17,667 bases of DNA from a virus. The stretch lies in UHGV virus genome UHGV-0114647. One strand, given 5' to 3'. Shown piece by piece: positions 6,746 through 17,667 of this stretch (positions within the stretch are counted from its first letter, which is position 1; every line of letters starts with the position of its first letter). The position numbers were made by a program, and so were the translations under genes. The notes under the pieces were generated by a model, which was given only the letters and a program-made list of their open reading frames with translations, was not told the origin of the DNA and ran no database searches.

Positions 6746-8572
6746 ATGACTAAATCAATCTATGCAGTACCAGCAGGTCTTAATGCAGATGCTTATAAAG
6801 CGGGTCATATCTATCAGTATCCAGATGCTACACAGTATCTTATGTTGAACTTAACACCTCGTGGAGATAAATGGTTTAACTCTCCGTTAGAGATTGATGG
6901 TGTTGTAGCTTTTGGTATTCAGCGTTTTGTAAAAGACTATCTGGTAGACCACTGGAATGCAACGTTCTTTGAACGTGATAAGAAAGAAGCCATTGACGAA
7001 ATCTTGGAAATCATGAATGGTGTCCTTGGTGCAGATACTATTGGTCGTCAACATTGGGAAGAACTTCATGACTTGGGTTACCTACCTGTTGAAGTCTACT
7101 CTGTAGAGGAAGGTACAATTGTCCCTATGCGTGTCCCGATGATTGTCTTCAAAAATACTGTAGAGGGATTCCATTGGGTAGCTGGTTACCTTGAAGATGC
7201 TTTCTCTGCTGAAATCTGGAAAGCTTGTACGATTGCAACTATTGCACTGCATTACAAACGTATTTGTAAGCAATGGGCTGATTTAACCTGTGACAACGAC
7301 TCCCATTTACCTTGGCAGTGTCATGACTTTGCAATGCGTGGCATGTCTGGCTTCACAGATGATGCGTTTAACGCAGTAGGACACCTGACAAGCTTTAAAG
7401 GTACTGACAGCTTCCCTGCTGTCTACACTGCTAAACGTTCTTATGGTCAGTTTATGGAAGTAAGTGATATCGGCAACTCTGTACCAGCTACTGAACACTC
7501 TGTGATGTGCGCAAACATTTCATGGAATATGAAAGACTTGTCAGAGGAAGATATTCATTCACAGTACATCATGCGGTCTGATAGCTTGCTGGATGCAAAA
7601 CGTTGGCGTGGTGAGGTTAAAACCTTTGAGCATTTACTGGTAGACGTATATCCAACTGGTATTGCAAGTGTTGTTTCAGATACTTACAACTTCTGGCGTA
7701 CTGTTACAGAGATTCTGCCAGAGCTACGTAATGTAATTCTGAATCGTGATGGTAAGTTGGTAATTCGTCCAGACTCTGGAGACCCTGTTCACATTGTTAC
7801 AGGTTACAAAGCCGTTGAATGGGAAACTGCTAAGTCAATGTTCTACAAGCACATGAAAGGTCTTGCACCAGATAATACCCATCTGCATGACACAATCTTG
7901 AATTGTGAAATGTCTGATATTGGTTTTGGGTTCTCTGCTTGGTTAATCTCTGAAGGTTATGAGATGGTTGTTGAAAATGAAGATTTTGATTATATTGATA
8001 CAATCAACCTGATTACCGCTCAGAAAACTGGACAGTTTACTGTGAAGCGTATGTTAACAGCAGAAATTGATGGAGCTATCCACACGCTGTATAACATCTT
8101 TGGTGGTACTGTTAACTCCAAAGGGTACAAAGTACTGGATGAGCACATTGGACTAATCTACGGTGATTCTATCACTCTGGAAAGGGCTAATGAGATTCTG
8201 TCACGTCTTGCTGATAAAGGTTTTGCAAGTTCTAACGTAGTGTTTGGTGTAGGCTCATACACCTATCAGTACCTGACTCGTGACACCTTTGCATTTGCTG
8301 TTAAAGCAACTCTTGCACAGATGGATGGTCAAGAAATTATGCTGGCTAAAGACCCTAAAACTGACAGTGGTCTTAAGAAGTCTGCTTTTGGTGGAGTCGT
8401 CCCTATGTGGGATGGTGACAAGCTAGTAGCTGTAGATGGTTTTGGCTTTGCAGAGTTTGAAGGTGCAATTGACAATTGTCATAGTGCTTTGAAACTGGTA
8501 TTTAGTAACTCGCAACCTTATGGTTACGTTAACCTGCGTGATGTTCGAAATACTATTGACAAGCAACTTTAA
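6746..8572 (+). CDS. nadV: nicotinamide phosphoribosyltransferase family protein (NAMPT/NadV-like), 608 aa
   Basis: N-terminal DAYKAGHIYQYP (compare NAMPT DSYKxxHxxQYP); HDFAMRGMSG...HLTSFKGTDS (compare DFGYRG...HLVNFKGTD); VVSDTYNF; VIRPDSGDP; NSKGYKVL; GDSIT; FGVGSY; LTRD. About 100 aa longer than typical NAMPT. Confidence 0.8.
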   Translation: MTKSIYAVPAGLNADAYKAGHIYQYPDATQYLMLNLTPRGDKWFNSPLEIDGVVAFGIQRFVKDYLVDHWNATFFERDKKEAIDEILEIMNGVLGADTIGRQHWEELHDLGYLPVEVYSVEEGTIVPMRVPMIVFKNTVEGFHWVAGYLEDAFSAEIWKACTIATIALHYKRICKQWADLTCDNDSHLPWQCHDFAMRGMSGFTDDAFNAVGHLTSFKGTDSFPAVYTAKRSYGQFMEVSDIGNSVPATEHSVMCANISWNMKDLSEEDIHSQYIMRSDSLLDAKRWRGEVKTFEHLLVDVYPTGIASVVSDTYNFWRTVTEILPELRNVILNRDGKLVIRPDSGDPVHIVTGYKAVEWETAKSMFYKHMKGLAPDNTHLHDTILNCEMSDIGFGFSAWLISEGYEMVVENEDFDYIDTINLITAQKTGQFTVKRMLTAEIDGAIHTLYNIFGGTVNSKGYKVLDEHIGLIYGDSITLERANEILSRLADKGFASSNVVFGVGSYTYQYLTRDTFAFAVKATLAQMDGQEIMLAKDPKTDSGLKKSAFGGVVPMWDGDKLVAVDGFGFAEFEGAIDNCHSALKLVFSNSQPYGYVNLRDVRNTIDKQL

Positions 8573-12765: not shown

Positions 12766-12793
12766 GGGGCTGCTTCGGCAGCCTTTTTTATTT
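12766..12793 (+). terminator. rho-independent terminator after rIIB
   Basis: GGCTGC-TTCG-GCAGCC hairpin followed by TTTTTTATTT. Confidence 0.65.
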
Positions 12794-12819
12794 GAAAAAT
12801 GTGCAGGTTAGTGTATAAT
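12792..12819 (+). promoter_or_regulatory. sigma70-like promoter
   Basis: TTGAAA at 12792-12797, 16 nt spacer, perfect TATAAT at 12814-12819. AGGAG RBS at 12841-12845 follows. Confidence 0.5.
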
Positions 12820-14557: not shown

Positions 14558-14585
14558 AGAGGCTCCTTCGGGAGCCTTTTCATTT
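14558..14585 (+). terminator. rho-independent terminator
   Basis: GGCTCC-TTCG-GGAGCC hairpin followed by TTTTCATTT. Confidence 0.6.
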
Positions 14586-14601
14586 ATGTAAGGGGTATAT
14601 T

Positions 14602-16191: not shown

Positions 16192-16384
16192 TTTCTGCAC
16201 TAAGTGTTCTGTTGAGATGTTTGGAAAAGACACAGGGGACTTAAAAGGTCTCTTTACAAAAGCAGAGTTTGAAGCTGGTTCAGCAATGCCAGTAATCTGT
16301 GAAGGTTGTGGTGCTTTATGGGTAGACCATGAAGGTAACCGAGTTAAACCATCTGAAGATAACGAACGTTGGGAGCATTACTAA
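16184..16384 (+). CDS. small zinc-ribbon protein (66 aa)
   Basis: AGAGGT RBS. Two Cys pairs, CTKC and CEGC. Overlaps both flanking genes. Confidence 0.45.
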   Translation: MADFCTKCSVEMFGKDTGDLKGLFTKAEFEAGSAMPVICEGCGALWVDHEGNRVKPSEDNERWEHY

Positions 16385-16385
16385 T

Positions 16386-17180
16386 ATGGGTATCGTAAAA
16401 ATTATTAAAGGTGATATCTTTAAAGACTTTGATGGTAAGAAGTTTGATATCATTGGTCACGGTTGTAACTGTATGAACTTGATGCCAGCAGGTATCGCAG
16501 CAACAATTGCCAAACGTTACCCAAAAGCTTATGAAACTGACGCTGAAGTTTATGCTGCAGTAGGTGGTGAAAATCATAACCCTAAGCATCTAATGCTTGG
16601 TAACATCTCTGTAGCACGTTTTAAGCAGGGTCGAATTGCTAACCTTTACACTCAGGTTATCACTGGCAAAGATGCACGATACAACGCCTTAGAAGCAGCT
16701 TTACAGCGTCTTAACAACTACTGTAAAGTTAATCAACTTAAGAAAGTTGGGCTTCCGATGATTGGTGCAGGGATTGGTGGTCTTGATAGCATGGCTGTGC
16801 TGTCCATTATCAACCAGACTATGAAGGATGTTGACGTTTATATGTATGTCTATGAAGATAAGATGTACAGTCAGTTGACTAGTCCTGTTACTGGTTGGGA
16901 GAACTTCAGTGAGCCTCAATACTTTGATGGTGTTGCTGTGGTAGGCAAGGATAAAGTTACCCTCAAGGTGAAGCGTAATGGCAAGGTACACACCAGTTAC
17001 CCTCCGGTTGAGAAGTACAATCGGAGTAACGCTCAAGTTACCCACCCGTTACAAGGCCACCACCACAGAGCGGTAACGTTTGGTGATGATGCAAGTGTAT
17101 ATATCAATGCGACTACAGAAGAGTTTGCAGAAGATTATATCACACATGAAAACGTAAACTATGTTGAAGCACGTAACTAA
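16386..17180 (+). CDS. macro-domain protein (ADP-ribose binding/processing) with C-terminal extension
   Basis: N-terminus MGIVKIIKGDIFKDFDGKKFDIIGHGCNCMNLMPAGIAATIAKRYP matches the macro-domain opening (GDI-[TF]...D-x-I-V-N-A-A-N...G-G-V). Later GLPMIGAGIGGLD resembles the phosphate-binding glycine-rich loop. Confidence 0.6.
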   Translation: MGIVKIIKGDIFKDFDGKKFDIIGHGCNCMNLMPAGIAATIAKRYPKAYETDAEVYAAVGGENHNPKHLMLGNISVARFKQGRIANLYTQVITGKDARYNALEAALQRLNNYCKVNQLKKVGLPMIGAGIGGLDSMAVLSIINQTMKDVDVYMYVYEDKMYSQLTSPVTGWENFSEPQYFDGVAVVGKDKVTLKVKRNGKVHTSYPPVEKYNRSNAQVTHPLQGHHHRAVTFGDDASVYINATTEEFAEDYITHENVNYVEARN

Positions 17181-17209
17181 TAAGTTACCCAGATAGACAT
17201 AGACAAGCC

Positions 17210-17440
17210 CTCCAAAGTTTGAGTTTAAAATCTCAGGTAAGGGGGGCTTTTTCATTTTAAATTTGTGCAGGTATAGTTGCATAGAACTCTGGACAGATTT
17301 CTTTAGCTGAACTCCAAAGGGAAAATTCATTTCAAATTTGTGTAGGTTTAGACTCCAAAGGGATTTTTCATTTTCAATTTGTGCAGATGCAGTTGGACTC
17401 CAAAGGGAAAATTCATTTTCAGTTTGTGCAGGTAGGTAGC
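17210..17440. repeat. tandem direct repeat array, about four units of 41-100 bp
   Basis: Units begin at about 17210, 17311, 17352 and 17397, all with the core (ac)TCCAAAGGGaaaaTTCATTTtCAaaTTTGTGCAGgT. Internal units are 41 and 45 bp; the first has an insertion. A related TGTGCAGGT element lies in the promoter at 12800. Confidence 0.6.
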
Positions 17441-17607
17441 TGTAGGAAGCCAGCCCCACCACCCCCTCTTACTCCCCTTCATCCCAAAAGTCAAGAGAAA
17501 AATTTGTAGAGAACGCAAAAATAATTCTTGACTAGATTCCTGTTTTAGTGTATCCGCATACGTGCGTTCTATTCACAAAGCATCAAAAAATATTTTAAAA
17601 ATTTTTG

Positions 17608-17636
17608 TTGACTTCATAAATCCAGTCTTATAGTAT
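17608..17636 (+). promoter_or_regulatory. candidate sigma70-like promoter directed out of the window
   Basis: TTGACT at 17608-17613, then TATAGT after a 15 nt spacer or TAGTAT after 17 nt. Spacing is not ideal. Confidence 0.3.
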
Positions 17637-17667
17637 TTGCATCAACGGGAAACATCCCAACAATCCT

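Follow-up and report, generated by a model that had tools for sequence, protein, structure and literature searches.

A conserved non-coding array of direct repeats in FelixO1-type phages as a candidate iteron-like cluster of protein recognition sites

Iteron arrays are known from the origin of lambda, which carries four sites for the O protein, from P4 ori and crr, from R6K, pSC101 and P1, with an extra iteron site in the rep promoter, and from T4 oriE. Transcription-activated origins include the primary origin of T7 (tandem promoters and an A/T-rich region), T4 oriF and oriG, and ColE1, where RNA II forms a hybrid of G-rich RNA and C-rich template. Phage multi-operator sites include the asymmetric operators of P1 C1, the p4 sites of phi29 and the T4 MotA boxes at -30. 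A further comparison is offered by the injection stop region (iss) of T5, a large untranslated, repeat-rich region that is conserved above its neighbouring genes (Davison, bioRxiv 10.1101/866236). Here we describe an array of four co-oriented direct repeats in the virus genome UHGV-0114647, a stretch of 17,667 nucleotides referred to below as the window. On balance, the sequence suggests that this array is probably an iteron-like cluster of recognition sites for one sequence-specific double-stranded DNA-binding protein, set in an early control region.

FelixO1 is a classical Salmonella typing phage, and its relatives (Felixounavirus, Mooglevirus and Kolesnikvirus) are widely used in biocontrol and therapy cocktails. 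To our knowledge, no replication origin has been mapped in any FelixO1-type phage. By its sequence the window belongs to the Mooglevirus/Felixounavirus group, that is, to the FelixO1-like myoviruses (Ounavirinae), and it is 98.8% identical to Citrobacter phage BSwM KMM2 across 768 tested bases. The complete genome of KMM2 (88,537 bp) was used as the genome-wide reference for core counts.

A preliminary description of the window, made from its letters alone, had proposed four tandem direct repeats. Tandem Repeats Finder agrees, reporting 17311-17433 (period 45, 2.9 copies, score 147) as the sole sizeable tandem repeat in the window, as does a repeat search that places four in-register copies from 17230, 17305, 17346 and 17391 (spacing 75/41/45). 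The copies are mutually 65-86% alike and their period is irregular. Each contains a bipartite core, TCATTT-N7-GTGCAG, starting at 17252, 17327, 17368 and 17413. The GTGTAG of copy 2 is a C>T variant specific to the window, and relatives have GTGCAG at this position. The four units are as follows.

17246-17273, plus strand, motif copy 1: GCTTTT TCATTT TAAATTT GTGCAG GTA
17321-17348, plus strand, motif copy 2: GAAAAT TCATTT CAAATTT GTGTAG GTT
17362-17389, plus strand, motif copy 3: GATTTT TCATTT TCAATTT GTGCAG ATG
17407-17434, plus strand, motif copy 4: GAAAAT TCATTT TCAGTTT GTGCAG GTA

Among 81 distinct units the conserved element spans ~27 bp and consists of a G at -6, either CTTTT or AAAAT, TCATTT, seven A/T-rich base pairs, GTGCAG and (G/A)T. 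Conservation is 98-100% at positions T0, A2-T5 and G13-G18 and 95% at G-6, whereas N7 and the flanks are variable. Positions -5 to -1 are all-or-none, reading CTTTT or AAAAT. MAFFT alignments, which are independent of the search pattern, show the same invariant columns. Every unit includes 18-20 bp of pure A/T. The non-coding sub-blocks have conservation values of 0.90 and 0.80, compared with 0.72-0.76 for the flanking genes. The ACTCCAAAGGG half, which had been stressed at first, is lineage- and copy-specific and in most relatives a different sequence takes its place in copy 4; the selected part is W5-TCATTT-N7-GTGCAG(G/A)T with G at -6. Iteron origins are recognised by at least three co-oriented direct repeats of a 17-27-bp site in non-coding DNA, and here there are four (three to five in relatives).

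The exact core has four matches in the 88.5 kb of KMM2, all of them within the array, where shuffled sequences give an expectation of 0.1. In intergenic DNA, matches with one mismatch add only a fifth copy embedded in a promoter, and all five copies lie on the transcribed strand. Random scatter of the motif was looked for, and the motif proved to be confined to these two intergenic loci. Elsewhere in the window the short motif TTTGTGCAGGT shows no enrichment (14 matches with at most two mismatches, 8.2 expected). In Felixounavirus a second short repeat, (T/C)CT(G/A)TAGAGA(A), is present in two places after copy 1 and in one after copy 4. It is found at 1542-1593 of locus L004 (FelixO1) and at 17275-17320 and 17435-17448 of the window, and is related to the CTCCAAAGAGA left halves of units 2-3. 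Since this extra repeat follows copies 1 and 4, these two are alike over a longer unit of 36 nt (83% identity).

The intergenic region has counterparts in 256 phage records, FelixO1 (7970-8389) among them, with identities of ~73% and above. In ~45 Felixounavirus and Mooglevirus genomes there are three or four copies, spaced 73-77/39-41/45, or 75/45 in the three-copy lineage (finno, Si3-like, pSJ21) from which copy 2 is missing. Copies 3 and 4 are 45 bp apart in all genomes examined except wV8 (43 bp). Erwinia phage phiEa21-4 (Kolesnikvirus) is not alignable at the DNA level, but the layout after its macro-domain gene is the same. Like its relatives, it has four units at 37/37/39 bp; in phiEa21-4 these carry the right half GTGCATAG, and the array is separate from the terminator. 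The array is followed by a related C-rich block and by a leftward TTGACG-18-TATACT and a rightward TTGACT-17-TATATT back to back. Copy 4 of FelixO1 and unit 3 of phiEa21-4 are near-identical across ~35 nt. In a further 88-kb lineage, represented by locus L077, the array consists of five units (GTGCATAGG, GTGGATAGG) and encloses the C-rich block. The order of array, G/C-skewed block and A/T-rich divergent promoters thus recurs in three lineages. In pattern scans of IMG/VR, GTDB genomes and metagenomes, FelixO1-like contigs were the only ones with the array. The GTDB scan otherwise returned only unrelated 21-nt minisatellites, and the metagenome scan yielded known FelixO1-like arrays and many unrelated tandem repeats but no new lineage. 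IMG/VR locus L048 was rejected as a coding repeat. Several records appear to be mislabelled: Escherichia phage vB_EcoM_P54 (PV390658.1), filed as Tequatrovirus, has the FelixO1-type module, and 'Staphylococcus phage SA1' (GU169904.1) and some 'Campylobacter phage' records hold FelixO1-like or T5-like sequence.

The sites are confined to the array and one promoter copy and are conserved at base level across three genera while the spacers between them drift. The A/T tract occurs in either polarity, which argues for readout of double-stranded DNA shape and not for an RNA motif. The right half-site differs by genus (GTGCAGGT versus GTGCATAG or GTGGATAGG) with the remainder of the unit unchanged, as expected if site and protein co-evolve. 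Taken together, the invariant cores, drifting spacers, fixed orientation, small changes in copy number, genus-specific half-site and two-polarity tract point to sites for a double-stranded DNA-binding protein and are hard to fit to an RNA signal. Such a protein would bind the sites, and is more likely to be encoded by the phage than by the host. The units are non-coding, do not fold, and are themselves neither terminators nor promoters. Among the options first offered for the array were an iteron-like origin and a cluster of regulator sites; these two are favoured jointly, as an array of protein sites acting at the DNA level, and are not separable from each other.

The fifth copy stands apart from the array, downstream of rIIB.

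12782-12809, plus strand, fifth isolated motif copy: TTATTT GAAAAAT GTGCAG GT (core 12788-12806, one mismatch)

It lies directly 3' of the rIIB terminator hairpin (-15.6 kcal/mol, z = -3.3) and spans -38 to -20 of the promoter TTGAAA(12792)-16-TATAAT(12819), overlapping the -35 element and the spacer, with 7 nt between it and TATAAT. This is the strongest sigma70-type promoter in that part of the window. A site over the -35 and spacer would be in a classic position for a regulator. An occurrence of TGTGCAGGT in the promoter at 12800-12810 had been pointed out before, and it belongs to this copy, which is conserved across genera and is not a chance match. The copy is kept in both Felixounavirus and Mooglevirus; in Felixounavirus the -35 is poor (TTTGTA) and the -10 perfect. 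The motif consequently brackets a 4.4-kb operon that runs from an SLT-like gene to the macro-domain gene.

The macro-domain gene closes this operon, which ends at the array.

16329-17180, plus strand, macro-domain 'phosphatase' gene (Pfam Macro domain, E = 9e-7; PHROG 335; relatives annotated as phosphatase or macro domain)

The region from 17181 to ~17685 is without genes, about 505 bp here and 503 bp in KMM2, which bears out the unusually long (~490 bp) non-coding stretch reported at the outset. Its counterpart in KMM2 is the second-largest internal non-coding stretch of that genome; the largest (613 bp, KMM2 85575-86187) lies within the terminal block of small genes. On the 3' side of the array is a run of small genes, each with its own promoter. 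In Pr103Blw the right genome end is 6.9 kb (7.8%) away from the array, and in KMM2 the distance is 8.0 kb (9.0%). The position of the module, ~7-9% of the genome length in from the right end, is where the rII-to-macro operon gives way to the terminal block of small early genes. Comparison of KMM2 80001-88537 with 50001-80000 shows a compositional step at the array with gene orientation unchanged. Downstream, GC content falls from ~0.38-0.42 to 0.33-0.37, GC skew is weaker and AT skew is higher.

The array is also a place where modules are exchanged, with the macro gene and the C-rich block swapped in some lineages. In the three-copy lineage (phage finno, locus L038, 2429-3300; also L009, L021 and L037) the macro-domain protein is only 43% identical and another terminator hairpin is present, but motif cores and downstream blocks have been retained. 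The array is therefore a mosaic junction between exchangeable modules. These breakpoints are compatible with the suggestion that the array is a recombination hotspot, although such a role leaves the base-level conservation of the core unexplained.

The first copy is combined with a terminator.

17205-17258, plus strand, intrinsic terminator equivalent to FelixO1 t13 (hairpin 17205-17249, 45 nt, plus the T-tract TTTTTCATTTT)

The T-tract TTTTTCATTTT is also the left half of motif copy 1, and the 45-nt hairpin accounts for the expansion of the first copy that had been noticed previously. As RNA the hairpin folds at -20.5 kcal/mol (z = -3.66), and none of 200 shuffles was equally stable. The stem is upheld by G-C/G-U changes and one compensatory change, and the signal is strand-specific (alifold -27 on the plus strand versus -7.6 on the minus strand). 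FelixO1 t13 is listed at 7947..7994 with -21.8 kcal/mol (PMC3185647, Table 2). Copies 2-4 fold worse than shuffles (-3.3 to -4.7 kcal/mol, z = +1.0 to +1.3) and for this reason are not terminators. Tandem intrinsic terminators were accordingly rejected as an explanation of the array, with a hairpin and U-tract present only at copy 1 (-20.5) and at the rIIB site (-15.6) and A-tract units present in all lineages. Beyond t13, no conserved RNA structure and no covariation were found on either strand of the array. Rfam covariance models gave no match at E <= 1 over the whole window, and ARAGORN found no tRNA there. A strong intrinsic terminator is also present in mid-operon at 14558-14588 (GGCTCCTTCGGGAGCC plus TTTTCATTT, FelixO1 t5). 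It shares its T-tail with the left half of the motif but is not followed by GTGCAG, which makes it useful as an internal negative control.

These features bear on the first alternative, in which the units would act on the plus strand as RNA. Carried in read-through transcripts, they would be back-up signals for termination, processing or decay, the C-rich block downstream would be a Rho-utilisation (rut) site, and the whole would be a multi-layer transcription insulator. In its favour, the five copies all point in the direction of transcription, a genuine terminator hairpin precedes both copy 1 and copy 5, TTTTTCATTT is the usual terminator tail of the phage (also at 14558), and the C-rich, G-poor block is rut-like and ancestral. 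However, copies 2-4 show neither the folding nor the covariation of a structured RNA, the array of phiEa21-4 is detached from the terminator, and the units of L077 all have the A-tract and no U-tract. The exchange of U5 for A5 between copies would not be neutral for an RNA signal, and GTGCAG lies past the release point of efficient terminators and hence would rarely be transcribed. We consider a plus-strand RNA element improbable.

Downstream of the array, the remainder of the gap contains a skewed block and several candidate promoters.

17450-17485, no strand assigned, C-rich block (G-rich on the minus strand, four G-tracts)
17466-17494, minus strand, candidate leftward promoter P_L (-35 TTGACT, 17494..17489; 17-nt spacer; -10 TAAGAG, 17471..17466)
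17528-17556, plus strand, candidate rightward promoter P1 (TTGACT-17-TATCCG; A/T-rich block 17486-17527 upstream)
17584-17636, plus strand, rightward early promoter P2 (AAAAATATTTTAAAAATTTTT plus TTGACT-17-TAGTAT, 9/12; then leader CATCAACGGG...CCCAACAATCCT)

The minus strand of the C-rich block has a canonical G-quadruplex pattern. Counterparts of the block lie at ~1715-1752 in L004, at 9478-9497 in L061 and, on the reverse strand, at ~5430-5470 in L077. Related blocks in phiEa21-4 and the L077 lineage indicate that it is ancestral. In one Felixounavirus sublineage (EC6, momo, BPS15Q2, finno) it has been swapped for an unrelated block that is G-rich on the plus strand. A G-quadruplex or rut role as an obligatory partner of the array is weakened by this healthy sublineage, even though the block is ancestral. 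The minus strand of the L077 block includes an exact E. coli Chi site, GCTGGTGG, which is found in L077 only; a Chi function was rejected there, the orientation of GCTGGTGG being wrong for protecting the nearby right end. In locus L013 (IMGVR_UViG_3300045988_004180) a Nextera adapter, CTGTCTCTTATACACATCTCC, directly follows TAAGAG at the contig end by the C-rich block, an assembly or trimming artefact.

The promoter-like elements that had been seen after the array are accounted for by P1 and P2, to which the leftward P_L can be added. The TTGACT-17-TA.... of P_L is present in 37/37 distinct sequences, in two non-homologous versions of spacer and -10 (TAAGAG/TAATAG in 20, TAGCCT/TAGTCT in 17). 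P_L was missed by the promoter scan, and because its -10 lacks the final T in the window it can only be presumed to be active. If so, it would transcribe the array in antisense. No conserved leftward open reading frame (ORF) was found for it to express. P1 is likewise only presumed to be active, since its -10 ends in G. The A/T-rich block at 17486-17527 is universally conserved, is common to P_L and P1, and also reads as promoter UP elements. The back-to-back pair occupies 17466-17556 and has its counterpart at 9595-9687 in L061. At P2, AAAAATATTTTAAAAATTTTT is presumably UP-element-like, judged from the published consensus, and a promoter is annotated at this site in ASO1A. The P2 promoter and leader family recurs before several downstream small genes. 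Within the terminal small-gene block (window 17637-17667 onward; KMM2 80883-87560), a cassette of a strong sigma70 promoter and the leader CATCAACGGG...CCCAACAATCCTAAACTGGAGA precedes many genes, and the 14-bp core of the leader is annotated as repeat_region in Mordin. These cassettes resemble the promoter-stem-loop cassettes by which T4-type phages shuffle their small early genes, and the genes right after P2 differ between close relatives.

A second alternative is that P_L produces a leftward non-coding RNA of ~250 nt with three to five repeats of CUGCAC-N7-AAAUGA, which would serve as a sponge, an antisense RNA or a primer RNA. The retention of TTGACT-17-TA.... through two unrelated -10 contexts favours such a transcript, as do the leftward promoter at the same place in phiEa21-4 (10/12), the lack of a conserved leftward ORF, and two phiEa21-4 units whose minus strand scores as sigma70 promoters (TTGCCA-17-TAAAAT). 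However, the proposed RNA has neither an Rfam match nor conserved minus-strand structure, and no leftward terminator is present, the t13 stem being weak in that sense (-7.6). The TAAGAG of the window is without the critical final T, the fifth copy elsewhere is in the opposite transcriptional context, and the two-state A/T tract argues for a function at the DNA level. A leftward RNA as the reason for the repeats is therefore quite improbable.

Returning to the array as a cluster of protein sites, the array, terminator, G/C-skewed block and back-to-back promoters form a conserved non-coding control module. Its four sites, once occupied, would build a nucleoprotein complex beside the divergent promoters, and two roles can be envisaged for it. 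The complex could mark a transcription-activated replication origin, a possibility we hold tentatively; transcription from P_L would run across both the G-rich block and the A/T-rich units, in the manner of T7, T4 or ColE1-type origins. Somewhat more doubtfully, the sites could be an operator or roadblock array that insulates the early genes from read-through. It would then also stop P_L transcripts, for which no terminator is present, and, through the fifth site (-38 to -20), control the promoter of the upstream operon. A more specific version of the first role, in which array, G/C-skewed block and back-to-back promoters constitute the FelixO1-type replication origin and combine iteron recognition with transcriptional priming, is again rather doubtful. 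A transcript made from P_L by host RNA polymerase would form an R-loop on the C-rich template, while a phage protein on the four sites would open the adjacent A/T-rich units and load the T7-like primase-helicase.

Several observations weigh against an iteron-like cluster of protein sites and these roles. The period of 37-45 bp is about twice that of classical iterons, and the spacing between copies 1 and 2 and copies 2 and 3 drifts by 2-4 bp, so that strict helical phasing is lost. The C-rich block that an R-loop origin would need is replaced by one of opposite G/C polarity in the healthy sublineage described above, and the -10 hexamers of both P_L and P1 end in G in the window. No fifth copy was found in phiEa21-4, and none of the ten proteins encoded by the adjacent bracketed operon showed a DNA-binding domain. 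There is no inflection of GC or AT skew at the array, which is a weak test, as skew follows gene orientation and transcription. A literature search found no transcriptomic, origin-mapping or replication, or footprinting study for the group.

As a third alternative, the right half-sites could be degenerate boxes for host DnaA, forming either a DnaA-dependent origin or a T5-like pause in DNA entry after the first 7-9%. Read on the opposite strand, the units of phiEa21-4 are (C/T)TATGCAC(A/G) and match TT(A/T)TNCACA at 7/8 specified positions, or 8/9 positions overall, the copy-to-copy difference in L077 (G/C) falls on the degenerate N, and the distance of the array from the right end (7.8-9.0%) is close to the 7.9% boundary of T5 first-step transfer (bioRxiv 10.1101/866236). 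However, the units of the window match only 5-6/8, with positions 1-3 always wrong, and no match of at least 7/8 was found in KMM2 80400-80800. Matches of 7/8, including those of phiEa21-4, are background in these AT-rich genomes (31 such sites per 14 kb), and DnaA would not select for the conserved AGGT flank. An entry pause is opposed by the absence of A1/A2-type genes, by the lack of evidence of two-step entry in any myovirus, and by the hypothetical standing of the T5 DnaA model itself. DnaA boxes were accordingly rejected for the lineage of the window, as was a T5-type injection stop, the array having neither inverted repeats nor consensus DnaA boxes. A DnaA-box cluster is thus very improbable. 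As a reading of the module, an entry-pause signal delimiting a first-transferred early block of 7-9% in a myovirus would be even less likely than the combined iteron and priming origin.

ORFs can be drawn across the array (window 17049-17462 and 17348-17518 on the minus strand, 17381-17509 on the plus strand), and hypothetical proteins are annotated there in Mordin (gp014, minus strand), KMM2 (HNDCFFNB_00146), wV8 (gp13, plus strand), the original FelixO1 record (ORF31-34), ESh22 and Silverhawkium (gp124); the RefSeq version of FelixO1 leaves the region unannotated. These ORFs agree in neither strand, frame nor extent, the reading frame across the invariant block changes from lineage to lineage, indels are of 2 and 4 nt, and variable columns are spread 24/26/29 by codon phase. 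A decayed coding sequence was looked for in relatives and no decayed ORF was found. A protein-coding function was therefore rejected, and the annotated proteins are almost certainly spurious. That the units have no function of their own, as relics of tandem duplication of a terminator-promoter cassette, or that they form a short coding gene, is hardly credible: copies 1 and 5 do resemble terminator-plus-downstream cassettes, and ORFs are annotated on the array in Mordin, KMM2, wV8 and the original FelixO1 record, but ~45 genomes show no change at the core positions, which can be recognised in three genera although adjacent bases drift, and the ORFs are inconsistent and lack 3-periodicity.

Other candidates were also rejected. 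Stacked sigma70 promoters, one of the options of the preliminary description, did not hold up: only copy 1 matches at 9/12 (TTTTCA-17-TATAGT), and this is not conserved in relatives; copies 2-4 have no such match, no -10 element stands at a sensible spacing from copies 2 and 3, and the motif is absent from the ~40 other sigma70-type promoters of the phage. An array of clustered regularly interspaced short palindromic repeats (CRISPR) had been excluded from the start, and the irregular period (75/41/45), repeats only 65-86% alike, 'spacers' that are conserved between genomes and partly repeated, the absence of cas genes and the virulent nature of the phage agree. A genome end or pac site was considered in view of two GenBank records and several IMG/VR contigs that end in the region. 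However, the annotated 581-bp direct terminal repeat (DTR) of Pr103Blw begins 6.3 kb downstream of the array, and DTRs of 608 bp have been shown by experiment in UAB_Phi87 (PMC4837284). Two of 256 records ending there is the chance expectation, and the contig ends are accounted for by assembly effects, with one 55-nt k-mer overlap (circular at k = 55), one Nextera adapter, and graph junctions. The consensus sequences for IHF, Fis, CRP, Fur, sigma54, sigmaE and sigma32, compared by eye with the unit, presumably do not apply, as none fits all copies.

No paper describing the array, or a transcriptome or replication origin for FelixO1-type phages, was found in the literature. This array is missing from the FelixO1 genome paper, which does list t13 and other direct repeats and states that the temporal control of transcription and the bypass of terminators are not understood (PMC3185647). 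The FelixO1 timing table based on reverse transcription polymerase chain reaction is too coarse to class the genes flanking the array. From its sequence, the array appears to be a cis-acting module that occurs throughout the subfamily and has so far gone undescribed; its general kind is familiar, and no new principle is involved. Within the part of the genome examined, no other non-coding feature was found to be as conserved as this module. At ~300 bp, it is a small, mutable target for finding an origin or an early/middle switch together with its DNA-binding protein, and makes this question directly testable in a classical phage group. Those who engineer such genomes, including by cell-free phage rebooting, should avoid deleting the region or inserting into it.

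Of the known systems, T5 iss shares with this locus an untranslated repeat region that is more conserved than its neighbours, delimits ~8% of a genome with DTRs and bounds small early genes. However, T5 has inverted repeats, palindromes and paired consensus DnaA boxes in a 10-kb terminal repeat, whereas here there are direct repeats only, a 0.6-kb DTR 6 kb away, and early genes transcribed outward; the resemblance is positional only. Phage multi-operator sites are similar in their asymmetric motif, in the single copy centred near -29 of a sigma70-type promoter and in the cluster upstream of early promoters. They differ in that the five sites per genome seen here do not define a promoter class, four being promoter-less, and in that the array is clear of P1 and P2. 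As at transcription-activated origins, promoters would direct transcripts through a G/C-skewed block into A/T-rich DNA. The site is likewise close to one end of the genome, at the early/middle boundary, and the phage has a T7-like primase-helicase. Such origins need no repeated 27-bp motif, and here the polarity that would give G-rich RNA is reversed in one sublineage and P_L is weak by consensus in the window. The FelixO1-type replisome is T7-like, with a T7-like primase-helicase (PMC3185647), which sets it apart from iteron systems, as T7 itself starts by transcription and not from an initiator. Iteron arrays also have a period of ~22 bp as opposed to 37-45 bp, and here no initiator gene is recognisable and no skew signal is seen. 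They are matched in three to five co-oriented repeats of an asymmetric ~20-27-bp site in non-coding DNA by A/T-rich DNA and promoters, in a copy number that varies between relatives while the core is kept, and in an extra copy on a promoter ~4.4 kb away, comparable with autoregulatory sites or P4 crr. In how it would work, the array is thus most like iteron or operator arrays.

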